From positions 192,001 to 256,000 of the forward strand of contig OZ243037.1 in NCBI GenBank assembly GCA_965212015.1: a stretch of 64,000 nt of DNA. Reading direction: 5' to 3'. The stretch's first letter is position 1, and every line of letters starts with the position of its first letter. A program made the translations under genes and the position numbers. This stretch comes from Cenarchaeum sp. (lineage in GTDB: Archaea; Thermoproteota; Nitrososphaeria; Nitrososphaerales; Nitrosopumilaceae). The notes under the pieces are model-generated. The model saw only the letters and a program-made list of their open reading frames with translations. It was not told where the DNA came from and searched no databases. Shown here piece after piece: positions 30,550 through 60,012 of this stretch.

Positions 30550-33282
30550 TTGAAGCACTGGGCATACGCAGTCCTTGCGATCGGAATACTGACACTGTCA
30601 ATTGGTGCGGCACATGCCGCGTCTGATGATTCCCCGCCAGCAATACTAAACACGATTCAAAACTTTGAGATTTCAACGGGTGATACGGCAAAGCTGTACC
30701 TTCACACAAAGTTTACCGATGATGGTACAATGACGTACACTGCCGATGCGGCAGATTCCACAATAGTGTCCATTCAGACACACAAAAGCCGGGTTGCAAT
30801 GACCGGGATTGTGGAGGGCACCACGCAGGTTACCGCATGCGCCAGCGACGGCACAAACGATCCCACATGCCAGACGTTTCGGGTCAGCATACAGCCATCT
30901 GCCACGCCAATAAAAACATCAAACACGATTCAAAACTTTGAGATTTCAACGGGTGATACGGCAAAGCTGTACCTTCACACAAAGTTCTCCGGCCAGGGCA
31001 CTCTGGAATACACGGCCGATGCGGCGGATTCCACAATAGTGTCCATTCAGACAGACGGGAGCCGGGTTGCAATGACCGGGCTAAAAGCGGGCACCACGCA
31101 GGTTACCGCATGCGCCAGTAACGGTGCAGGCGAGTCGCTCTGTCAGAAATACAGGGTAACAATCACCGCAGGACTGATAATAGTGCCGCCATCGGATGTC
31201 ACCGCAGAGGCCACAGGAGTGCTGACCGTGGTGGATATCGGCACTGCAAATCATGACTCAATCCGAATTACCAATGACGCGCCGGATTCATTCCCGCTGG
31301 GCGATACCATGGTGACGTGGAGTGCAGACGGCCACGAGAGCGCGACTCAGACTGTTACTATACGGGACACGACCCCGCCCGAGTTTGACAGACTGCGCGA
31401 CATAAAGATCGGAGTGTCCCCGGAGCTGCCGCTCCTGTTCTATAATATTCCGGATGCAAGCGACCTGGCAGACGACTCTGTCGACGTATCGTGTACTCCT
31501 GCGCGTGAGACGGCAGCCACGTTTGGCACCGTCAATGTAGTATGTACTGCAACTGACGATTCTGGAAATTCCAGCACGGGATCCTTTGATGTTACAATAG
31601 TCCCGTTTGATGACGATCTCACGCCAGATACCGTGCAGCATGATCTTAATGCGCCAATCATTACGGCCCCCGACGACATAACCGCAGAGGCGACAGGCAA
31701 TCTCACAACGGTGGATATTGGCACTGCCGTCGCAAAGGATGCAGACGGCGACTTTCCCACGGTAACTAGCAATGCGCCGGATTCCTACCCTCTGGGCGAT
31801 ACTATAGTGACGTGGACTGCAACTAATAGTGACGGCTATGTCGCGCGCGTACACCAGAGAATTACCATTCAGGACACGATCCCGCCCGTCTTTGCATTCG
31901 CACATCTGCCACTGGTGACCTTTGAGCGCTCCATACAGGAGGTGATTCCCCCGCCGGTTGCGACAGATATTTTCGGCATTGATAATATAACATGCGCGTA
32001 TCCTGCGTCCAACATTTATCACCTAGGCGACAACGACATAACCTGCACAGCTATTGATGCAAACGGCCTCAAAACGGAGGAAACGTTTACGGTAAACGTG
32101 ATACAAAACCACACCAAGGTAAAACTTGTCCCAGATGATACCTTTAGATCCTTCGGGTTTGGCAGATACATGGAAAAGGTGGATGACACGCTAATAGTAA
32201 GCGGTGAATACAGAATGACACGTGGTCACGATCCTGCCATATACATATTCAAGATGGGCGAATCCGTCGAGGAATGGAGCCAGACTCAGCGCATAGACCA
32301 TATAGAAGGCGATATCGACAACCAATTTGGACGCGCAATATCATTTGACGGACGCACCATAGTGACAATATCAAAAGGTCTTTCCCAGAATGTCACCCAG
32401 AACAACGGTACAATACATACCTATGAGATGAATGATGCAGAAAAATGGGAACAAACACACATGATACAGCTTGATCATCTGATCAACCACACTGGAAATC
32501 TTCGGAGCATAGCGATAGATGAAGGGACGATTGTAGTGGGCACATACGGTACGACTCACGACGGCCATTCTGGAATAGTGGACGTATACGAGCGAAACAA
32601 TGACGGCTCGTGGAGCAACACTTGGACACAGAATTCATACATTACAGATGAACCGTATGGACAATTTGGAAAAAGCGTGGACATAGACGGGGACACCATA
32701 GTCATAGGTTCCCCGTACGCAAACGGGGCGGCATTCCGATCCGGTGTGGCCCACATACTTGAAAAGAACTCTACCGGACATTGGTTACTTGATGCGGCGC
32801 CTAGTCCGGATGATCTTAGGCCCAATGCGGGATTTGGAGACGATGTTGCGGTGGACGGTAATAAGGTCATAGTCGGTGCAAAATACCAGCGTGGTAGCGA
32901 AAAGGGCATCTATGGTGCAGCATACGTGTTTGAAAAAAAATCCGACACGTGGTTGCAAACGGAAAAACTAGTACCAGAGTCACCACAGTACAGATTTTTC
33001 GGGGACGATGTGAACATACATGACGGGACAATATCTGTCAATGCACACAATCCCAGTTCTCAAGGATGGAAGTCGGCAGTGTATCTATATGAACAAGAGG
33101 GCGAATTATGGAACAAATATGCGACAATAAAGCCGGGATATCAGATATTCTCTTTGCCCGACTCGCTCGGATCAGACCAGGACGTCCTGTTGGTAGGAAA
33201 TATCAATGACCGTACTGGACCCCAAAGATCCGGATCGGCATACCTGTATTTCGGAAACCTGACCGCATACGACGCACCATAA
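30550..33282 (+). CDS. Large surface protein, paralog A: signal peptide, 2 Ig-like repeats, HYR-like domains, FG-GAP beta-propeller
   Basis: NTIQNFEIST repeats, DTTPP/DVTAEATG HYR-like units, and FG..V..DG..IVVGA...G.AYVFE blades. Confidence 0.85.
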   Translation: MKHWAYAVLAIGILTLSIGAAHAASDDSPPAILNTIQNFEISTGDTAKLYLHTKFTDDGTMTYTADAADSTIVSIQTHKSRVAMTGIVEGTTQVTACASDGTNDPTCQTFRVSIQPSATPIKTSNTIQNFEISTGDTAKLYLHTKFSGQGTLEYTADAADSTIVSIQTDGSRVAMTGLKAGTTQVTACASNGAGESLCQKYRVTITAGLIIVPPSDVTAEATGVLTVVDIGTANHDSIRITNDAPDSFPLGDTMVTWSADGHESATQTVTIRDTTPPEFDRLRDIKIGVSPELPLLFYNIPDASDLADDSVDVSCTPARETAATFGTVNVVCTATDDSGNSSTGSFDVTIVPFDDDLTPDTVQHDLNAPIITAPDDITAEATGNLTTVDIGTAVAKDADGDFPTVTSNAPDSYPLGDTIVTWTATNSDGYVARVHQRITIQDTIPPVFAFAHLPLVTFERSIQEVIPPPVATDIFGIDNITCAYPASNIYHLGDNDITCTAIDANGLKTEETFTVNVIQNHTKVKLVPDDTFRSFGFGRYMEKVDDTLIVSGEYRMTRGHDPAIYIFKMGESVEEWSQTQRIDHIEGDIDNQFGRAISFDGRTIVTISKGLSQNVTQNNGTIHTYEMNDAEKWEQTHMIQLDHLINHTGNLRSIAIDEGTIVVGTYGTTHDGHSGIVDVYERNNDGSWSNTWTQNSYITDEPYGQFGKSVDIDGDTIVIGSPYANGAAFRSGVAHILEKNSTGHWLLDAAPSPDDLRPNAGFGDDVAVDGNKVIVGAKYQRGSEKGIYGAAYVFEKKSDTWLQTEKLVPESPQYRFFGDDVNIHDGTISVNAHNPSSQGWKSAVYLYEQEGELWNKYATIKPGYQIFSLPDSLGSDQDVLLVGNINDRTGPQRSGSAYLYFGNLTAYDAP

Positions 33283-33630
33283 ACAGAGGCATATGTCCGC
33301 ACAGCATGATCTTGTTGATACTGTCATGTCTTGATTTGGACTTGCAGGATGTGCAAGTGCAATTTTTTAGAGCTTGAGACAGAATAGACCGATGCTTGGC
33401 ATGGTGATTGCCTCAAAAGGCAGAGGTGGCCGGCCTAGCAAAAAGCGAGGCAGGCCGTCCGGTGGCGGCAGGGACAACAACTATAGCCTCGTTTTTTGTC
33501 ATATTTCTGCTAGCCCGCCTGCAAGACAATGTCCAAGATCGGCATTTTAGCAGTTGCCAGAATCAGGCAGGGCAGTGGGGCCGATACCCGTTCCGCGGCT
33601 GCACATGGGGGAAGATATACGGTATTTCCG

Positions 33631-34079
33631 ATTTGCCGGATTCTAACATTATAATGTTATAATATGCCGGATATGGCCGGTTTTGCCATCAAACAGTCTT
33701 AGAATATTCTAACCTCAAATAGGGCCATTTGCCGGATTCTAACATTATAATGTTATAATATGCCGGATATGGGGCGGTCCTGATTCTAACATTATAATGT
33801 TATAATGGGCAAAATAGAGGCTTTTTTGCCCTCAAATATTGTTATAAGGTTATAATATACCAGATATGGCCGATTTCTAACATTATAATGTTATAATGGG
33901 CAAAATAGAGGCTTTTTTGCCCTCAAATATTGTTATAAGGTTATAATATACCAGATATGGCCGATTTCTAACATTATAATGTTATAATGGGCAAAATAGA
34001 GGCTTTTTTGCCCTCAAATATTGTTATAAGGTTATAATATACCAGATATGGCCGATTTCTAACATTATAATGTTATAAT
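33631..34079. repeat. AT-rich palindromic tandem array (2 x 46 bp, then 3 x 91 bp plus a final core)
   Basis: The core TTCTAACATTATAATGTTATAAT occurs at 33641, 33737, 33784, 33875, 33966 and 34057. The sequence between the last four cores is essentially identical. Confidence 0.95.
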
Positions 34080-34146
34080 CTCAAATGGAGGCATGTTTTG
34101 TACCAAAAGAAAATATATAATAATCAGATAATATGACAATTAGACA

Positions 34147-35160
34147 TTGGCAAAACCGAGTAAAGCGACTCAGGAACAGCTTCGAAAGTACCATAGAGAA
34201 TATCAGAAAAAATACTATAAAGAAAACAGGGAGGAGATTCTGGCCAGAAACAGGAAAAACCAGGCAAAAGCCAAGCCGGGCAGAAAACCCGGACGACCCA
34301 AGGGCAAGCCGGGTAGGAAACCGGGTAGAAAGCCCAGGGCAAAATCCAATCTGTCTGCCAAGGAACGACTTCGAATTTACCGTGCAAAATACTACAAGGA
34401 AAACAGGGAAAAAATTCTAGCTAGCAATAGAAAATCTCAGGCAAAATCAAAGGGCAAGCCCGGCAGAAAGCCAGGTAGGCCCAAAGGAAAGACCGGCAGA
34501 AAACCCGGACGACCCAAGGGCAAGCCCGGCAGAAAGCCAGGTAGGCCCAAAGGAAAGACCGGCAGAAAACCCGGACGACCCAAGGGCAAGCCGGGCAGAA
34601 AACCCGGACGACCCAAAGGAAAGACCGGCAGGAAACCGGGTAGAAAGCCCAGGGCAAAATCCAATCTGTCCGCCGAGGAGCGGCTCCGGATATACCGTGC
34701 AAAATACTACAAGAAAAACAAGGAAAGGATTCTGGCACAAAATAGAAAATACCAGGCAAAAGCCAAGCCGGGCAGAAAACCCGGACGACCCAAGGGCAAG
34801 CCGGGTAGGAAACCGGGTAGAAAGCCCAGGGCAAAATCCAATCTGTCTGCCAAGGAACGACTTCGAATTTACCGTGCAAAATACTACAAGGAAAATAGGG
34901 AAAAAATTCTAGCTAGCAATAGAAAATCTCAGGCAAAATCAAAGGGCAAGCCCGGTAGAAAACCCGGACGACCCAAGGGCAAGCCGGGTCGAAAGCCCAA
35001 GGCAAAGACACGCAGGAAATCAAGTGGATCTTCCAAGGAACAATCCAGAAAGTACCACCGGGATTACCAGAGAAGATACTACAAGGCAAACAGGAATAAA
35101 ATCCTGGCAAGAAACAGAAAACGCCAGGCAAAGCCTGCAACCAGACGCCGCAGGAGATAA
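34147..35160 (+). CDS. Extremely Lys/Arg-rich repeat protein, putative DNA-binding (AT-hook-like GRPKG motifs)
   Basis: 337-aa ORF (TTG start) with 8 GRPKG motifs and 5 YYKxNxxxILA helices. Synonymous variation between repeats supports coding. Confidence 0.8.
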   Translation: MAKPSKATQEQLRKYHREYQKKYYKENREEILARNRKNQAKAKPGRKPGRPKGKPGRKPGRKPRAKSNLSAKERLRIYRAKYYKENREKILASNRKSQAKSKGKPGRKPGRPKGKTGRKPGRPKGKPGRKPGRPKGKTGRKPGRPKGKPGRKPGRPKGKTGRKPGRKPRAKSNLSAEERLRIYRAKYYKKNKERILAQNRKYQAKAKPGRKPGRPKGKPGRKPGRKPRAKSNLSAKERLRIYRAKYYKENREKILASNRKSQAKSKGKPGRKPGRPKGKPGRKPKAKTRRKSSGSSKEQSRKYHRDYQRRYYKANRNKILARNRKRQAKPATRRRRR

Positions 35161-35170
35161 CATTTTCCAT

Positions 35171-35986
35171 CTAGCAGAAATTCTGCGTGTGGTAACCGTC
35201 CTCATCCTCATTGATTGCCACACCTATGCCTATCCTGGTATAGTCCTGCTCCAGTATGCTCTCCCTGTGTCCCGGACTGTTCATCCAGCCGTCCACTATC
35301 GCGCGGGCCATGTCTTCTTCGCTGTCGTACCAACTGTAGGACGTCTTTAATGCCTTGGACATATAGCTGGTGTATGTGGCATACATGGCTATGTTCTCTG
35401 TCAGACCCTCCGTGTAATAGCCTCCATAGTATTTTCTACAATCATAACCTGCCTTTTTTCCCCGGTCACTCGGACCATGACCCTCGGGCGAATCGTGGGA
35501 GTAATAATTTCGCGCGGACATGTCCTCGCTGTGTCCCCGTGCAATGGCATCAATCCTGGAATCTCTGAGAAGAGGCCCGACATTATGCGAGTCCCTCTCC
35601 ATGTTTGTAAATTCGTATATGTGGTTCTCGACTAGCCGGGGATCAAAGCCCGACTCTATACGGATGGGCGGAAGGCCGGAATTCTCGATTGCCATCCAGA
35701 CAGACGAGTTGCCTATGGTTTCGGCCACTTTGGAGTTTTCAATCATACCCGATACGTCGCCCTCTATGTCTCCGATGACTGCGAGCGTCTGCCGCTCTAT
35801 TGTATTGGAGTCAATATTCCCATACTGTACCAAGAGAAATCCCCCGATTGCCGCCAGGGACAGCAGGGCCAGTATTGCGGGTTTTTTTGATGCCCGTCTC
35901 CTTTTGAACTCCCTGATGTGGCCGCATTTTGTACAGCAAAAGCCCCCCTCGCCATGGACATAGCTGTGGCCGTCGCATTCTGACAC
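35171..35986 (-). CDS. CAP/SCP-domain protein with an N-terminal Zn-ribbon-like motif and TM anchor
   Basis: TNMER, ARGHSEDM...YYSH, ENIA, GWMNSPGHRESIL and TQNFC. Confidence 0.9.
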   Translation of the reverse strand: MSECDGHSYVHGEGGFCCTKCGHIREFKRRRASKKPAILALLSLAAIGGFLLVQYGNIDSNTIERQTLAVIGDIEGDVSGMIENSKVAETIGNSSVWMAIENSGLPPIRIESGFDPRLVENHIYEFTNMERDSHNVGPLLRDSRIDAIARGHSEDMSARNYYSHDSPEGHGPSDRGKKAGYDCRKYYGGYYTEGLTENIAMYATYTSYMSKALKTSYSWYDSEEDMARAIVDGWMNSPGHRESILEQDYTRIGIGVAINEDEDGYHTQNFC

Positions 35987-36401: not shown

Positions 36402-39400
36402 ATGCTTGGATCTGCATTATCCGAATCCCCCCCCCCTCTAGCTTTGAAGCACTGGGCATACGCAGTCCTTGCGATCGGAATACTGGCGCTGTCAATTGGT
36501 GCGGCACATGCCGCGTCTGATGATTCCCCGCCCGCAATACTAAACACAATTCAAAATTTTGAGATTTCAACGAATGAAACGGCAAAGCTGTACCTTCACA
36601 CAAAATTCACCGATGATGGTACAATGACGTACACTGCCGATGCGGAAGATTCCACAATAGTGTTCATTCAGACACACAAAAGCCGGGTTGCAATGACCGG
36701 GATTGTGGAGGGCACCACGCCGGTTACCGCATGCGCCAGCGATGGCACAAACGATCCCACATGCCAGACATTCATGGTCGACGTACAGCTTGCAGACGTG
36801 CCAATAAAAATATCAAATGCGATTCAAAACTTTGAGATTTCAACGGGTGAGACGGCAAAGCTGTATCTTCACACAAAGTTCTCAGGCCAGAGCGCCCTGG
36901 AATACACGGCAGATGCGGCAGATTCTGCGATAGTGTCAGTACAGACAGACGGGAGCCGGGTTGTAATGACCGGACTAAAAGAGGGCACCACACAGGTTAC
37001 CGCATGCGCCAGTGACGGCACAAACGACCCTACATGCCAGACGTTTCGGGTCAGCATACAGCCCTCTGCCACGCCAATAAAAACATCAAACACGATTCAA
37101 AACTTTGAGATTTCCACCGGTGAGACGGCAAAGCTGTACCTTCACACAAAGTTCTCCGGCCAGGGCACCCTGGAATATACGGCCGATGCGGCGGATTCCA
37201 CAATAGTGTCCATTCAGACAGACGGGAGCCGGGTTGCAATGACCGGACTAAAAGCGGGCATCACGCAGGTTACCGCATGCGCCAGTAACGGTGCAGGCGA
37301 GTCGCTCTGTCAGAAATACAGGGTAACAATTACCGCAGGACTGATAATAGTGCCGCCATCGGATGTCACCGCAGAGGCCACGGGAGTGCTGACCGTGGTG
37401 GATATCGGCACTGCAAATCATGACTCAATCCGAATAACCAATGACGCGCCGGATTCATTCCCGCTGGGCGATACCATAGTGACGTGGAGTGCAGACGGCC
37501 ACGAGAGTGCGACTCAGACTGTTACTATACAGGACACGACCCCGCCCGAGTTTGACAGACTGCGCGACATAAAGATCGGAGTGTCCCCGGAGCTGCCGCT
37601 CCTGTTCTATAATACTCCGAGTGCAAGCGATCTGGTAGACGACTCTGTCGACGTATCGTGTACTCCTGCGCGTGAGACGGCAGCCACGTTTGGCACCGTC
37701 AGTGTCGCGTGTATTGCAACTGACGACTCTGGCAATTCCAATACGGGATCCTTTGACGTTACAATAGCGCCATTTGATGGCAGTCTCACGCCAGATACCC
37801 TGCCGTACGACCTCCATGCGCCAATCATTACGGCCCCAGATGACATCACCGCAGAGGCGACAGGCAATCTCACGGAAGTGGATATCGGCACTGCCGTCGC
37901 AAAGGACGCGGACGGTGACTTTCCCATGGTAACTAGCAATGCGCCGGATTCCTACCCTCTGGGCGATATCATCGTGACGTGGACTGCAACTAATAGTGAC
38001 GGCTTTGTCTCACGCGCCACTCAGAGAATCACCATTCAGGATACAACTCCGCCCGTCTTTACATTCGCACATGAACCGCTGGTGACCTCTGAGAGTTCCA
38101 TACAAGCAGTGATTCCCCCGCCGGTTGCAACAGATATTTTCGGCATTGGCGATATAACATGCACGTATCCTGCGTCCAACATCTATTACCTGGGCTCCAA
38201 CGACATCACCTGCACGGCTGTTGATACAAACGGGAATGAATCAACGGAATCATTTAATGTAGAGGTTTTGTCCCGGACTGGCACTATAATCCAAATAACA
38301 CCAGAACACCCTGACAGAACATCCGGATTCGGCAAATATGTGGAACGGATAGACGATTCCATGATAGTGAGCGGACGCTATCTGACTGGATCAGATCGGA
38401 TCCCGTCCATATTCCCGTTTGAGAACGTTGCCGAATCTGACGGGCCAGAACGATGGATAGCAGACGGGCGCATAACTGATCCCGGAAATTCACCGAACAA
38501 CAGGTTCGCAAATGCCATATCCTTTGACGGACAAACCATAATGGCCACGTCAAACGATCTGACTTCGGCTTCAGGCACCCAGAACAGCGGCGCAGTATAC
38601 GTCTTTGAAAAGAATGCCGAGGACGAATGGACGGAAAAACAGAAAATATCGCTGGGCCACCTGATTGAATCCACGGGAAACTTTCGCAGCATAGCAATGA
38701 ATGGCAACTCTATGGCGGTAAGCTCTTACAGTTCAACCCCTGATTTCCCCTCCGGCATAGTCGACATATACGAGCGTCAAGGTGCGGATCAACCATGGAC
38801 GTACGCAGAGCGGATAAGCCCGTACATTTCCGGATTACACGGAAGCTTTGGACGTGGCCTTGCCATGGATGACAACTATTTGGTAATAGGCTCTGCATAT
38901 GCAGACGCAGTAGTACAACAGTCGGGAGCCGCCTACATACTGGAGAAAAATTCCGCAGGAAATTGGATTCGCACCGCCACGCTTCAGCCTGCAGACCTCA
39001 GATCCGCCTCGACATTTGGAGAGAATGTTGCGATATCTGGAGATACGGTAATAGTGGGGGCAAAATACCTACGCGACAGGGACACGGGTTCATTAGGTGC
39101 CGCATACGTCTTTGAAAAGGACGATTCCGGTGCATGGCAGCAGGTACAAAAGCTGATGGCAGATACGCCGTCTCACAGGTATTTTGGTGTCGACGTAAAC
39201 GTATATGGTGATACCATGGCTGTTAGCTCACACCATCTCAACGGTGGTTCGGCAAAATCTATCATATACATATATGAAAAGAACGGCTCGACATGGAACA
39301 ATGTGGCAACAATTGATCCTGACTTTTACATATTTTCATCGCCGGACTCGCTGGAACTTGACACTAATTCGATGTTGGTGGGAGACGTAAATGGTGTTGC

Positions 39401-39467
39401 TAATTCGAAAAAAACAGGGCTATTGACGATGTATCTTGGCGATCTGTCATCATTCAACTCTCCATAA
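36402..39467 (+). CDS. Large surface protein, paralog B: 3 Ig-like repeats, HYR-like domains, FG-GAP beta-propeller
   Basis: Near-identical to 30550-33282 over the stalk and divergent in the propeller. The start may be the TTG at 36444. Confidence 0.85.
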   Translation: MLGSALSESPPPLALKHWAYAVLAIGILALSIGAAHAASDDSPPAILNTIQNFEISTNETAKLYLHTKFTDDGTMTYTADAEDSTIVFIQTHKSRVAMTGIVEGTTPVTACASDGTNDPTCQTFMVDVQLADVPIKISNAIQNFEISTGETAKLYLHTKFSGQSALEYTADAADSAIVSVQTDGSRVVMTGLKEGTTQVTACASDGTNDPTCQTFRVSIQPSATPIKTSNTIQNFEISTGETAKLYLHTKFSGQGTLEYTADAADSTIVSIQTDGSRVAMTGLKAGITQVTACASNGAGESLCQKYRVTITAGLIIVPPSDVTAEATGVLTVVDIGTANHDSIRITNDAPDSFPLGDTIVTWSADGHESATQTVTIQDTTPPEFDRLRDIKIGVSPELPLLFYNTPSASDLVDDSVDVSCTPARETAATFGTVSVACIATDDSGNSNTGSFDVTIAPFDGSLTPDTLPYDLHAPIITAPDDITAEATGNLTEVDIGTAVAKDADGDFPMVTSNAPDSYPLGDIIVTWTATNSDGFVSRATQRITIQDTTPPVFTFAHEPLVTSESSIQAVIPPPVATDIFGIGDITCTYPASNIYYLGSNDITCTAVDTNGNESTESFNVEVLSRTGTIIQITPEHPDRTSGFGKYVERIDDSMIVSGRYLTGSDRIPSIFPFENVAESDGPERWIADGRITDPGNSPNNRFANAISFDGQTIMATSNDLTSASGTQNSGAVYVFEKNAEDEWTEKQKISLGHLIESTGNFRSIAMNGNSMAVSSYSSTPDFPSGIVDIYERQGADQPWTYAERISPYISGLHGSFGRGLAMDDNYLVIGSAYADAVVQQSGAAYILEKNSAGNWIRTATLQPADLRSASTFGENVAISGDTVIVGAKYLRDRDTGSLGAAYVFEKDDSGAWQQVQKLMADTPSHRYFGVDVNVYGDTMAVSSHHLNGGSAKSIIYIYEKNGSTWNNVATIDPDFYIFSSPDSLELDTNSMLVGDVNGVANSKKTGLLTMYLGDLSSFNSP

Positions 39468-39600: not shown

Positions 39601-39915
39601 ATGCGATCAAGGAACAGAATTCCAAATGGCTGGCGATGGAATCAGATGTCTGGCAGGCATCGTATATCCCATTTTGTAATTCGATGCATTATTGCAGCTT
39701 TGATGTGTTTTTTTGCAATATTGCTCTTGGTAGTTTCTACCGAACAATTTTATTTTGGAAACATGCACTATGAGCGGCCTATCGGGTTTTTCGTCGGCGC
39801 AGTCATATCCGGCATGACAGGATTAGGCTGCATATTATACGTCATAAATAAGACATATTTGAAATTTCTGGTATTTACACCAATATTTGCTGTGATAATA
39901 CTCCGTCGATCATAA
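39601..39915 (+). pseudogene. Small membrane protein whose 3' end is interrupted by IS630
   Basis: Removing the IS (39901-42092) restores ...FAVIIVGQSNGSIFIT-stop, with the TAG at 42126-42128. Confidence 0.6.
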
Positions 39916-40158
39916 GTTATTTCGCCTCACAGACTGCGCTCTAAATAGCGATAGATGTCCAGATTGAATCTTTTGTTTCTGAAATACTCTGATACTGTAA
40001 TCCACATTTTCTCTGCAGTCTCGTAATATTCGGAATGGACTAGCTCGTACTTGGCCTGTCGCCAGCACTCTTCGATGGCACTGAGTTGCGGTGAATATGT
40101 CGGAAGATAATACAGGATGACGTCCTTGTGCTTCTTCAGGTATTCTTTTACGTCACTA

Positions 40159-41252
40159 CTCCGTCGATCATAAGTTATTTCGCCTCACAGACTGCGCTCT
40201 AAATAGCGATAGATGTCCAGATTGAATCTTTTGTTTCTGAAATACTCTGATACTGTAATCCACATTTTCTCTGCAGTCTCGTAATATTCGGAATGGACTA
40301 GCTCGTACTTGGCCTGTCGCCAGCACTCTTCGATGGCACTGAGTTGCGGTGAATATGTCGGAAGATAATACAGGATGACGTCCTTGTGCTTCTTCAGGTA
40401 TTCTTTTACGTCACTAGATCTGTGCTGAGATGCATTGTCCACAATGACTAGAACTTTTTTCCATTTGAGCCGCATATCCTCAAGATATTGTACAAACGTT
40501 TCGCCGTTAAACTTTGGATATAATCGGAACAGTTGTGAGCCATTACCTGCTAGCGCACCATATACGATAATTTTCGTGTGGGATCCGGTACTTTTTATGG
40601 GAATTCTTTCACCCCGCAACGACCAATATTTTTTCCCTGCCATAGAATCATGTACAAAAATGGACTCGTCCTGGATTACAACTGTAAATCCTTGCCCTTC
40701 CATGCGTAAAATATCCGGCAAATTCTCGTTTCGCCACCTTGTGCATTCCGACTTGCTGCTTGCCTTGACGTATGTTCGTGTTGAGGCCTTTAATGTATAA
40801 TTAAACCAATTCAGGATTTTTCGAATGTTGCACATGCTGTATTTGACCCTGTATTTATTGTAGATTTTTCTTTGAAGCTTTTTTGGTGTAAGCTTTCCTT
40901 TATTACACAACCTCTTTGCCATTTTCTTAATTCTAATGCGCGGTACAAGAGGAGGCCTGCCCTCCTGCGGCAGAGTCCTGAGACCTTCTATTCCATCATT
41001 GTCGAAATATTCCAGCCACAACTGTACAGAACGCTGTGTGACGCCGACTGATTCGGCAGCAAAGCTTGTGGAACATCCCTTACTACGTACCAAATTGACT
41101 GCAATCAGTTTCTTGTGTATTTTGACGTTTTTTTCAGACTTTATGGCCTCCATGAGTGATGTTTTGATCATGATAATTGCCTAGAACCGCTGATCCTTAT
41201 ACTTTTCTGTTCAAAATTGTTCAGTAGGCGAAATTATTTTTGAGCGTCAGTA
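40159..41252 (-). mobile_element. IS630-family element, intact inner copy (1094 bp)
   Basis: Same ends as the outer copy. TA duplication at 40157-40158 and 41253-41254, within a CTAG target. Confidence 0.93.
40185..41171 (-). CDS. IS630-family transposase (intact)
   Basis: N-terminal HTH, GRPP, and DDE triad in QDES / VDNAS / YSPQLSAIEECW. Confidence 0.95.
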   Translation of the reverse strand: MIKTSLMEAIKSEKNVKIHKKLIAVNLVRSKGCSTSFAAESVGVTQRSVQLWLEYFDNDGIEGLRTLPQEGRPPLVPRIRIKKMAKRLCNKGKLTPKKLQRKIYNKYRVKYSMCNIRKILNWFNYTLKASTRTYVKASSKSECTRWRNENLPDILRMEGQGFTVVIQDESIFVHDSMAGKKYWSLRGERIPIKSTGSHTKIIVYGALAGNGSQLFRLYPKFNGETFVQYLEDMRLKWKKVLVIVDNASQHRSSDVKEYLKKHKDVILYYLPTYSPQLSAIEECWRQAKYELVHSEYYETAEKMWITVSEYFRNKRFNLDIYRYLERSL

Positions 41253-42009
41253 TAGATCTGTGCTGAGATGCATTGTCCACAATGACTAGAACTTTTTTCC
41301 ATTTGAGCCGCATATCCTCAAGATATTGTACAAACGTTTCGCCGTTAAACTTTGGATATAATCGGAACAGTTGTGAGCCATTACCTGCTAGCGCACCATA
41401 TACGATAATTTTCGTGTGGGATCCGGTACTTTTTATGGGAATTCTTTCACCCCGCAACGACCAATATTTTTTCCCTGCCATAGAATCATGTACAAAAATG
41501 GACTCGTCCTGGATTACAACTGTAAATCCTTGCCCTTCCATGCGTAAAATATCCGGCAAATTCTCGTTTCGCCACCTTGTGCATTCCGACTTGCTGCTTG
41601 CCTTGACGTATGTTCGTGTTGAGGCCTTTAATGTATAATTAAACCAATTCAGGATTTTTCGAATGTTGCACATGCTGTATTTGACCCTGTATTTATTGTA
41701 GATTTTTCTTTGAAGCTTTTTTGGTGTAAGCTTTCCTTTATTACACAACCTCTTTGCCATTTTCTTAATTCTAATGCGCGGTACAAGAGGAGGCCTGCCC
41801 TCCTGCGGCAGAGTCCTGAGACCTTCTATTCCATCATTGTCGAAATATTCCAGCCACAACTGTACAGAACGCTGTGTGACGCCGACTGATTCGGCAGCAA
41901 AGCTTGTGGAACATCCCTTACTACGTACCAAATTGACTGCAATCAGTTTCTTGTGTATTTTGACGTTTTTTTCAGACTTTATGGCCTCCATGAGTGATGT
42001 TTTGATCAT
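41221..42009 (-). pseudogene. IS630 transposase truncated by the nested insertion; 3' remainder at about 39927-40158
   Basis: Identical to the intact copy up to DNASQHRS, then reads into the end of the inner IS. Confidence 0.92.
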
Positions 42010-42544
42010 GATAATTGCCTAGAACCGCTGATCCTTATACTTTTCTGTTCAAAATTGTTCAGTAGGCGAAATTATTTTTGAGCGTCAGTATAGTAGGGCA
42101 ATCAAACGGCTCAATATTTATTACATAGAAAAATGAGCAAATCTTTAAGATCAGGAATCTTTGACTAATTTTTTTGATCACTGATTTTTCACATGCACCA
42201 TGGATGCAAAAAATGAAAAACCCTCCTGGGCCTATCAACGTAACAAACACACCATGGATTCGACCGTATGGTTGGAATGATTTTTGTATCGCCTCCTGAA
42301 ATCCGGGATAACATTATCCTGTATGGATCGTGCGTGATGCCAATCGCTGAATTGTCCGAATTTTTAAAAATTTTCAGCCAAATCAGTTCATCGGTTTTTT
42401 AAAACAAAATCACATGCATATCTGATTAATGAATCTGCCACTAATGATTCAGGTATATGTGGTATGATAACTCTGACTATCGACCAATGATTTGTTGTCG
42501 TAGGACATAACATTGTTAAATGCGAGACAGGAGTTTATCCACCT

Positions 42545-43615: not shown

Positions 43616-43709
43616 TGGACCGGATGGGATTTGAACCCATGACCCTTGCGGGATTTGTAAATCCTTACGCAGTGTGAGTGCGTCATCCTAGCCGCTAGAC
43701 GACCGGTCC
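43616..43709 (-). tRNA. tRNA-Val(CAC) with a 21-nt non-canonical intron (43645-43665)
   Basis: Acceptor stem GGACCGG/CCGGTCC, anticodon arm ACGCA-CTCACAC-TGCGT, T arm ATGGG-TTCAAAT-CCCAT. Removing the intron gives 73 nt. Confidence 0.92.
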
Positions 43710-58210: not shown

Positions 58211-58455
58211 GACTGTTATCAAATATGTTGGTCAGTTATCATGCAAATAATAGCATAATTATACGTATTATAGTACAATTATACATATTGTAGCACAATT
58301 ATGCACATTGTAGTACAATTATACATATTGTAGCATAACCATGCATATTGTACCACAACTATACATATTGTAGTGCAACTATGTATATGATAGCATATTT
58401 ATGAAAATAGTAGTGTTAGCAGATATGTTGGTCCGGCTACGATATGTTTGGTAGC
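58211..58455. repeat. AT-rich 20-bp-period degenerate tandem array
   Basis: Consensus TAGTACAATTATACATATTG at 58251, 58271, 58291, 58311, 58331, 58351, 58371 and 58391. ATATGTTGGTC recurs at 58223 and 58423. Confidence 0.9.
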
Positions 58456-59640: not shown

Positions 59641-60012
59641 CTAGCGACGTTTCCTACGTTTTGGCCCGCTCTTCTTTGCGGTGGTTCGTCTCTTTCGACG
59701 CTTTGTGACCTTTTTTGTAGTCGTTCGTCGCTTTCGGCGTTTTGTAACCTTCTTTGCAGAGGTTCGCCTCTTTCGGCGTTTTGTGACCTTTTTTGTAGTC
59801 GCTCGTCTTTTTGTTGTTTTGCGCTTCGCCCCGCTTTTCTTTGCGGCAGTTCGCCTTGTTCGGCGCTTTGCGCCTTTCTTTGCGATGCTGCTCTTTCTTT
59901 TTGTTGCAGCTCGCCTCTTTTTGGTGGCTTCTGCCTTTACTTTTGCGTTGCGCTTTCTTGTGCGTGCACCTCTTTTGGCTGCTGCACTGCGCTTAGCTTT
60001 TGATATTGCCAT
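59641..60012 (-). CDS. Histone H1/Hc2-like Lys/Arg-rich protein
   Basis: 123 aa dominated by K/R/A/T, with three KKVTKRRKRRT repeats. Confidence 0.8.
   Translation of the reverse strand: MAISKAKRSAAAKRGARTRKRNAKVKAEATKKRRAATKRKSSIAKKGAKRRTRRTAAKKSGAKRKTTKRRATTKKVTKRRKRRTSAKKVTKRRKRRTTTKKVTKRRKRRTTAKKSGPKRRKRR

Follow-up and report, generated by a model that had tools for sequence, protein, structure and literature searches.

Tandem copies of a palindrome-bearing module upstream of a gene for a basic repeat protein in a Cenarchaeum chromosome: a candidate amplified promoter-operator region

The window analyzed here comprises 64,000 nucleotides of a Cenarchaeum sp. genome (bases 192001-256000 of a single 1,764,220-bp contig; this genome is labelled G000) and contains a 449-nt non-coding array with six identical copies of a near-palindrome directly upstream of a gene for a 337-aa, strongly basic repeat protein. 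This layout is real and unusual, and the locus is best explained as a lineage-specific, fast-evolving gene whose promoter-proximal module was tandemly amplified. With regard to function, we tentatively favor a reading in which the amplified module acts as a promoter-operator that controls this one gene, the near-palindrome being the operator and the gene's own product its likeliest binder. A first-pass annotation had proposed that an AT-hook-like protein binds its own upstream array as a nucleation site for DNA compaction, for silencing of the flanking genes or as a partition-like locus; overall, this interpretation was partly supported.

The array (33631-34079; GC 31.8%, as compared to 51% for the 1.76-Mb genome) ends 67 nt before the TTG start codon at 34147, in good agreement with the earlier description of a non-coding stretch of about 450 bp some 70 bp before the gene. 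Its 23-nt near-palindrome, TTCTAACATTATAATGTTATAAT (referred to as P), occurs in six identical copies at spacings of 96, 47, 91, 91 and 91 nt, three of which are located within perfect 91-nt units. The 22-nt form of P differs from its own reverse strand at two positions and gave no match in 100 dinucleotide shuffles of the window, and its 16-nt core, TAACATTATAATGTTA, is a perfect palindrome. For the region 33784-34079, Tandem Repeats Finder (TRF) returned a period of 91 with 3.3 copies and 100% matches (score 592). Upon alignment of the six units on P, the 23-nt block was invariant, while the flanks differed between old and young units; outside P, the old units A1 and A2 share 73-75% identity with the 91-nt units. 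A second conserved box, Q, occurs in five copies and overlaps the right arm of P in the old units. In addition, the young units carry a hairpin with a T6 run, which is missing from A1, A2 and the last unit. The features of the array and the gene are as follows:

33631-33783, no strand: units A1 (96 nt) and A2 (47 nt), older and diverged; P overlaps the TATA-like Q box in each
33784-34056, no strand: three perfect 91-nt tandem units (TRF; repeat family D2, 100%)
34057-34146, + strand: last, diverged unit of 90 nt, the putative working promoter region, from the sixth P exactly to the start codon
33641-33663, no strand: P box 1, TTCTAACATTATAATGTTATAAT
33737-33759, no strand: P box 2
33784-33806, no strand: P box 3
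33875-33897, no strand: P box 4
33966-33988, no strand: P box 5
34057-34079, no strand: P box 6, ending 34 nt before the TATA-like box of the gene
33807-33831, 33898-33922 and 33989-34013, + strand: hairpin GGGCAAAA-N9-TTTTGCCC with T6 run, young units only
33850-33869, + strand: Q box, TTATAATATRCCRGATATGG, TATA-like box plus downstream bases; copies start at 33657, 33753, 33850, 33941 and 34032
34114-34124, + strand: TATA-like box of the gene, TATATAATAAT, centered about 28 nt before the TTG
34147-35160, + strand: gene for the 337-aa basic repeat protein, TTG start, no internal Met
34448-34644, + strand: in-frame 33/66-nt coding repeats, PGRKPGRPKGK(T/P)G (TRF)
34582-35041, + strand: in-frame 177-nt coding repeat of one helix module and one linker (TRF)

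The 91-nt unit consists of 31 A, 33 T, 15 G and 12 C and thus shows no A bias. AT tracts of at least 6 nt occur at 62 per kb in the array and at 9.5 per kb genome-wide, and the array contains no AATT. In AT-richness, however, 56 further regions of the genome equal the array, so that this property by itself does not distinguish it, which weighs against the first-pass interpretation.

The array is read as a series of tandem copies of the gene's own promoter-proximal module, i.e., palindrome and TATA-like box, when the likeness of the last unit, its identical palindrome and its equal length are taken together. Downstream of P, the last unit is identical to the 91-nt unit in 41 of 74 aligned columns, a score attained in 63 of 2000 dinucleotide shuffles and, among 2000 natural AT-rich 68-mers taken from the genome, by 38. 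The best local block between Q and the gene's own TATATAATAATCAGATAATATGAC aligns TATAATATACCAGATA with TATAATA-ATCAGATA, with a score that 82 of 2000 shuffles also attained. At 25-32 nt upstream of its tRNA genes, this genome has boxes of the kind GATTATAA, CTTTAAAT or GTTAATAA, and the P core ATTATAAT and the Q box match these TATA boxes; based on the tRNA-gene boxes, the P core, Q and the gene's TATATAATAAT are all regarded as TATA-like. The position of the TATA-like box suggests that the mRNA of the 337-aa gene probably has little or no leader.

P is unique to this locus. Its 22-mer was not found elsewhere in the 1.76-Mb genome at up to 4 mismatches, and a search with the 16-nt core at up to 3 mismatches identified only five scattered 3-mismatch matches. 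Among 150 other genomes of the family (up to 3 mismatches), seven had single matches (2-3 mismatches) compared to nine for a reversed control, which is chance level. No exact match to P was obtained in GTDB species representatives or in viral contigs. P is also absent from four other genomes of the genus, in none of which the 847 nt of upstream DNA were matched. This uniqueness favors a dedicated, locally encoded binder, if there is any binder; a regulator encoded elsewhere would have a single target. A dispersed element of the MITE (miniature inverted-repeat transposable element) or REP (repetitive extragenic palindromic) type was ruled out, as palindrome, hairpin and Q box are confined to this locus, and an array of clustered regularly interspaced short palindromic repeats (CRISPR) was ruled out because whole 91-nt units, 'spacers' included, are identical.

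Strains were compared by means of contigs from four public runs of two studies, which cover the locus at 85-100% likeness. One of these contigs spans the junction from the last palindrome to the start of the gene (34050-34212, 13 differences), and another one lies within the old units (33647-33756, 4 differences). Among the strain differences listed for 33631-34146, 13 were substitutions and three were single-base deletions, and none occurred in the 138 nt of P boxes, for which a uniform expectation gives a P value of about 0.007. That P is identical in all six units although the old units have diverged counts for P as an operator. Within the stem of the hairpin, the variants 33901 C>T and 33902 A>G (runs X2 and X4) preserve the pairing as wobble on the + strand only, which is no more than a hint.

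The TTG at 34147 is the only start for the 337-aa protein, as an in-frame TAG is located two codons upstream and the frame contains no Met codon. The protein consists of 22% Lys, 18% Arg (40% together), 10% Pro and 10% Gly and has an isoelectric point of 11.9; the coding strand of the gene contains 40% A and 10% T. AlphaFold2 without alignment predicted five confident helices of about 30 residues each (9-41, 71-101, 176-205, 235-265 and 296-328; predicted local distance difference test, pLDDT, 82-95 by block), which are separated by linkers of the PGRKPGRPKG type with no secondary structure and a pLDDT mostly below 50. The earlier description of a DNA-binding-like repeat protein is corrected to five helix modules plus 23 short basic units. 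These units comprise 15 GRKP and eight PGRP but no RGRP core; the linkers, with eight KPGRPKG units in a disordered chain, are AT-hook-like rather than canonical AT-hooks. No Pfam or NCBIfam family was assigned to the protein, no Pfam AT_hook match appeared at E up to 1, and also PDB sequences gave no match at E up to 1. The internal copies 34209-34506 and 34701-34998 differ in 23 codons, 17 synonymously and six non-synonymously, and this synonymous bias indicates a real gene. Within the 177-nt repeat, contigs of runs X3 and X4 (one study) skip 677, 468, 316 and 180 nt and step back by 181 and 164 nt, suggesting that this repeat varies in copy number between strains; contigs across repeats can be chimeric. 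The product probably is a multivalent, non-globular, strongly basic DNA binder, which, along with an array that adjoins its promoter and a palindrome confined to this locus, speaks for the first-pass interpretation.

By significant profile and pairwise matches, the 337-aa protein is a member of a widespread but unnamed class of helix repeats in metagenomic and phage proteins, K-x-Y-Y-x-x-N-(R/P)-E-(K/V)-(I/V), with a period of about 13 residues. Its helices matched PHROG 36724 (E 1.1e-9, residues 8-35) and PHROG 17714 (5.6e-6, residues 302-330), and in BLASTP an in-genome paralogue of the RPEV type (E 3e-10) as well as a metagenomic repeat protein (E 3e-8). When the RPEV-type paralogue was used as query, 456 metagenomic matches were obtained at E up to 0.001 among 7,999 scored candidates. 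Eleven of the 120 matches listed carry a precomputed Pfam domain: PF01541 (four), PF01844/PF14279 (one), PF02945 (two), sigma-70 regions (two), PF13936 (one) and PF01807 (one), which we take to be GIY-YIG, HNH, Endonuclease_7, sigma-70 r2/r4, HTH_38 and a primase zinc finger. Based on these fusions to nuclease, sigma-factor and helix-turn-helix (HTH) domains, the 13-residue repeat may serve as a nucleic-acid-binding module. Elsewhere in the class the repeats are contiguous, whereas the 337-aa protein has one helix at a time between PGRKP linkers and lacks a catalytic domain.

Close relatives are few. A word-indexed protein search returned four and an all-against-all library 26 at E up to 0.001, among which only P0001 and P0007 are true relatives while the other 24 match the basic linker alone. 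P0001 (212 aa) is 68% identical over 61% of the query (E 1.5e-83). Among 40 related genomes, weak linker-only matches occurred in two of the four of the genus and in none of the other 36. No match was found in GTDB representatives, phage records or PADLOC, and the best score in the ESM Atlas, 0.76, was too low to use. The protein thus appears to be a near-orphan of one species group.

Within the genome, a wider family shares promoter and start in the form CCCATAATAATTCC, about 20 nt, ATTGGCAAAA, and genes of the RPEV type are located at about 325, 647, 881, 1146 and 1162 kb. The paralogues at two loci, L003 (two genes) and L026, share promoter and N-terminus with the 337-aa gene. The closest, an AT-hook-type gene at 1.161 Mb (1161234-1161592; L003 1336-1893), has a frameshift ahead of its last helix module. 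P0007, from another strain and an independent data set, shows this frameshift as well, so that the form represents either an old pseudogene or a tolerated truncated form. On the - strand at 1724229-1724670 (L026 1-1830), the family promoter and the first 20 codons (MAKPKESVRERLRKYH...) precede a secreted, Cys-rich 410-aa protein that continues after the 20 borrowed codons into a signal-like hydrophobic stretch; promoter and N-terminus seem to have been reused there as a cassette. About 270 nt upstream of this gene, a degenerate copy of a small AT-hook open reading frame (ORF) is present, the counterpart of which lies just before the array:

33392-33550, + strand: small ORF of 52 aa (MLGMVIASKGRGGRPSKKRGRPSGGG...), with the only canonical RGRP AT-hook core of the locus

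The region 33385-33483 is 81% identical to 1724568-1724670, where the hook residues are degenerate, and in other strains deletions of 1-2 nt at 33482-33492 shift the frame of the ORF, which is therefore probably a remnant rather than a working gene. A likeness of the array to the L026 spacer, noted by eye, was dropped, as only 33385 to about 33510 aligns.

Comparison across the genus gave a mixed outcome. In G004, a genome of the same genus with 69% GC, a 316-aa protein of GRKPGPKPGRK units (60-nt repeat, 6.7 copies, 99%) is preceded by a perfect 104-nt array of 3.3 copies, which is separated from the TTG start by 119 nt and has argS on its other side. This array is GC-rich, unrelated in sequence to that of G000 and contains short palindromes. 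In G002 (L033 1117-3762), nearly all of an 881-aa protein is made up of PRGRPPGRPK hooks that look canonical. Among the three poly-basic genes seen in the genus, two are thus directly preceded by a perfect array of roughly 100 nt. Such a pairing would rarely arise by chance if arrays fell independently, but they do not; the clustering of arrays and the repetitive nature of both genes mean that a local repeat-forming hot spot explains the pairing without function.

For the promoter-operator that we tentatively favor, the following scenario is conceivable. Each module contains the invariant P and the TATA-like Q, and the three youngest additionally the T6 hairpin. P would be a putative operator, and six identical sites 34 to about 470 nt upstream of the TATA box might provide a high-avidity landing pad that sets transcription of the 337-aa gene alone. 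The likeliest binder would be the gene's own product, resulting in feedback control as in nucleoid proteins; the helices would supply the contacts, the AT-rich minor groove would accommodate the PGR(K/P)P linkers, and the number of units would tune the response. We infer the binding to P, the identity of the binder and the direction of regulation from the sequence. A number of observations weigh against this reading. A palindrome this strict points to a sequence-specific factor that binds as a dimer, not to AT-hook-like linkers, and the 337-aa protein has zero RGRP cores. Three units are 100% identical, so that they are very recent and need not be selected. Neither the palindrome nor any array is present upstream of the paralogous genes at L003 (two genes) and L026, which is half of what the first-pass annotation had named as refuting its proposal, and the 881-aa gene of G002 has no upstream array. 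The likeness of the last unit to the 91-nt unit is modestly significant (P value about 0.02-0.04), suggestive rather than strong, and the constraint on the P boxes is a hint only, as it rests on the strain differences listed and contigs assembled with short k collapse repeats. In addition, arrays are abundant in the genus: G000 contains 79 non-overlapping tandem arrays with a TRF score of at least 100, 20 of them perfect, and a 400-kb sample of G004 contains 63, which are locally clustered.

The same abundance is what would be expected if the array were a mutational by-product of slippage or recombination, seeded by the palindrome in a repeat-prone genus and devoid of a dedicated function, which we regard as a serious rival, if a somewhat less likely one. 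In G000, 13 arrays have a period of at least 40, at least 2.5 copies and at least 95% matches, and 28 of the 79 belong to seven loci of the basic-repeat gene family or are no more than 3.1 kb away from them (11 inside genes, 17 outside; groups defined post hoc). A by-product would also fit the perfect identity of the three 91-nt units, the apparent variation of the gene's own coding repeats between strains and the paralogues that work without an array. Fast-arising perfect tandem repeats, both intergenic and in-frame, have been described for Borg elements (PMC9879509); the unit studied here, however, is without the A bias of Borg repeats. For neutral recent slippage it is moreover unexpected that the older, diverged part keeps only P and Q, and no strain difference among those listed falls in P. 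The layout of array plus gene also recurs in a second species with unrelated sequence.

Other readings appear less probable. The units might be stacked promoters or small-RNA units, in which the palindrome is a symmetric TATA box recruiting TBP and TFB and each unit is ended by the T6 hairpin, so that short sense RNAs would be made or a sink would modulate the real promoter. The identity of the P core ATTATAAT with tRNA-gene TATA boxes, the location of T6 within the hairpin of the three perfect units, with both lost from the last unit, and the two stem variants kept as G-U pairs on the + strand are in line with this. The 91-nt unit also folds better than shuffles (z -2.0 to -2.9), but these scores are modest and driven by the palindromes; there is no Rfam match, and by reading, no purine-rich stretch resembling a B recognition element (BRE) is evident before P. 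We consider stacked promoters improbable. Similarly improbable is a self-nucleating archaeal chromatin module, in which the multivalent protein with its AT-hook-like linkers docks on its own promoter palindromes and, starting there or in parallel, coats low-GC islands (the genome core has 55% GC) while the array sets the dosage; it is compatible with the promoter-operator reading. If true, it would be the archaeal counterpart of bacterial xenogeneic silencers, and another species of the genus would have evolved this design on its own, from an array and a repeat unit that are both unrelated. It is very unlikely that the array serves the chromosome or an integrated element as a partition centromere, an iteron or an origin of replication. 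The repeated sites do adjoin a DNA-binding-like gene, on an island that carries IS630-type transposases and ends at tRNA-Val; on the other hand, the neighbors examined by Pfam (21.9-49.6 kb) include no ParA, ParB, Rep, integrase or Orc1/Cdc6, which also speaks against the partition-like locus proposed earlier. The only Cdc6_C match (1281674-1281937) is about 1.06 Mb away, the cumulative GC skew shows no extremum at this locus, viral contigs lack the palindrome and phage records gave no match to the protein.

The genome encodes archaeal AmoA, one Orc1/Cdc6 and ribosomal protein L15e, identifying the host as an ammonia-oxidizing archaeon; a sigma-70 promoter scan was set aside for this reason. 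The 337-aa gene is located within a variable island between the genes for L15e and tRNA-Val/succinyl-CoA ligase, which harbors an M10-like peptidase, copies of an IS630-type DDE_3 transposase and a low-GC stretch; in each of the four other genomes of this genus, a long distance separates L15e from sucC. Two surface-protein genes (30550-33282 and 36402-39467, 90% identical) flank the 337-aa gene; they correspond to the 'adhesin' genes of the first-pass annotation, which are indeed present, but their domains are FG-GAP and HYR. No ATPase was found among the neighbors examined by Pfam either, as had been stated before for ATPase and Rep genes; apart from the surface proteins, the CAP protein, the peptidase and the transposases, these neighbors are housekeeping genes. 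A CAP-domain gene (35171-35986, - strand) is convergent with the 337-aa gene. Its 69%-identical paralogue (1144241-1145033) adjoins an RPEV-type basic repeat gene (1145949-1147385), so that a CAP gene stands beside a basic-repeat gene at two loci. At 39899-42094 of the window, IS630-type (DDE_3) copies, partly nested or tandem, are 100% identical to the copy at 601.5-602.6 kb, and beyond them a stretch with 35-43% GC extends up to tRNA-Val (43616-43709). In Rfam 15, only two tRNAs in the window reached gathering scores, and 33200-34300 gave only far sub-threshold matches to miRNA models.

Further repeats were observed in both genomes. The window contains two more arrays at 58251-58373 (40-nt unit, AT-rich) and 59684-59812, and the G004 sample (L049, G004:C2 2340001-2360000) a long array of 36-nt repeats resembling CRISPR. 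A conserved, GC-rich element about 190 nt long, with a long-range helix and the hairpin GGGGCTCCCGTCAGGGAGCCCC, is present beyond the window in about 14 copies in G000, at 647.7-651 kb (L030 4760-7860), 1162.5-1164.8 kb (L029 7590-9800) and near 159.4, 324.5, 756.5, 947.6, 1108.2 and 1134.2 kb. When nine copies were aligned, both partners had changed in three of the 34 pairs predicted, and where a single partner had changed, the result was mostly a wobble pair on the + strand. A short 27/54-nt tandem array stands behind every copy, and its palindrome varies between copies (e.g., TTTTGCAGTCAAAAA, AATGCATTTAATGCATT, TTGTGCACATTGTGCACAA, GTACACTCAGTGTAC). The series of these elements lies directly downstream of RPEV-type basic repeat genes and has no Rfam match.

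Accounts of archaeal chromatin usually center on histones, Alba and a few small proteins, and a full-text literature search for AT-hook together with archaea and Thaumarchaeota, which covered articles without their supplementary files, turned up no account of AT-hook-like proteins from Thaumarchaeota. The combination of a poly-basic, largely disordered protein with an amplified promoter that carries a private palindrome would offer a compact and testable example of tandem repeats giving rise both to regulatory DNA and to disordered DNA binders within a small archaeal genome. If the protein prefers AT-rich DNA, this would raise the question of foreign-DNA silencing in archaea; if the array is neutral, Borg-style perfect repeats are still shown in the chromosomes of ammonia oxidizers.

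When compared to known systems, the protein resembles HMGA-type AT-hooks and the RGR/QGR loops of Lsr2, H-NS and Bv3F in its Gly-Arg-Pro units flanked by Lys/Arg within a disordered basic chain, and the array is rich in AT tracts. The AT-hook consensus is RGRP, of which the RGR residues enter the minor groove (PMC8476142). Unlike HMGA, Lsr2 and H-NS, none of the 23 units is RGRP, there is no oligomerization or folded DNA-binding domain, and the host is an archaeon. Likewise, no Pfam match, PDB match or folded domain in the model connects the protein to the xenogeneic silencers H-NS, Lsr2, MvaT and Rok.

Type I partition loci, e.g., F-plasmid sopB-sopC, also display tandem identical sites beside the gene of a DNA-binding protein. 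In contrast to ParABS or sopABC, neither a ParA ATPase nor a ParB, ribbon-helix-helix (RHH) or HTH fold was identified by Pfam, NCBIfam or the model, and the locus is chromosomal, among surface-protein genes. As a defining feature of each was looked for and not found, the locus is not assigned to the AT-hook proteins, ParABS, iterons or origins, or the H-NS, Lsr2, MvaT and Rok groups.

Autoregulated DNA-binding genes with operator arrays in their own promoters are known for archaeal Lrp-type regulators and bacterial nucleoid proteins. Shared with these are the repeated palindromic sites directly upstream of a likely DNA-binder gene; different are the perfect tandem copies of the whole promoter module in which the sites reside, the lack of an HTH or RHH fold and a binder that is predicted. 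With Borg repeats (PMC9879509), the locus has in common perfect head-to-tail units, both intergenic and in-frame, disordered products, flanking partial or diverged units and fast evolution, and the repeat periods of the gene (33, 66 and 177 nt) are all divisible by 3, as in Borg in-frame units. Unlike Borg repeats, the array resides in the small chromosome of an ammonia oxidizer, its unit is without A bias, and its older, diverged part keeps the palindrome. By analogy, the locus would work most like an autoregulated gene of a DNA-binding protein with an operator array, while its origin resembles that of Borg-type repeats.

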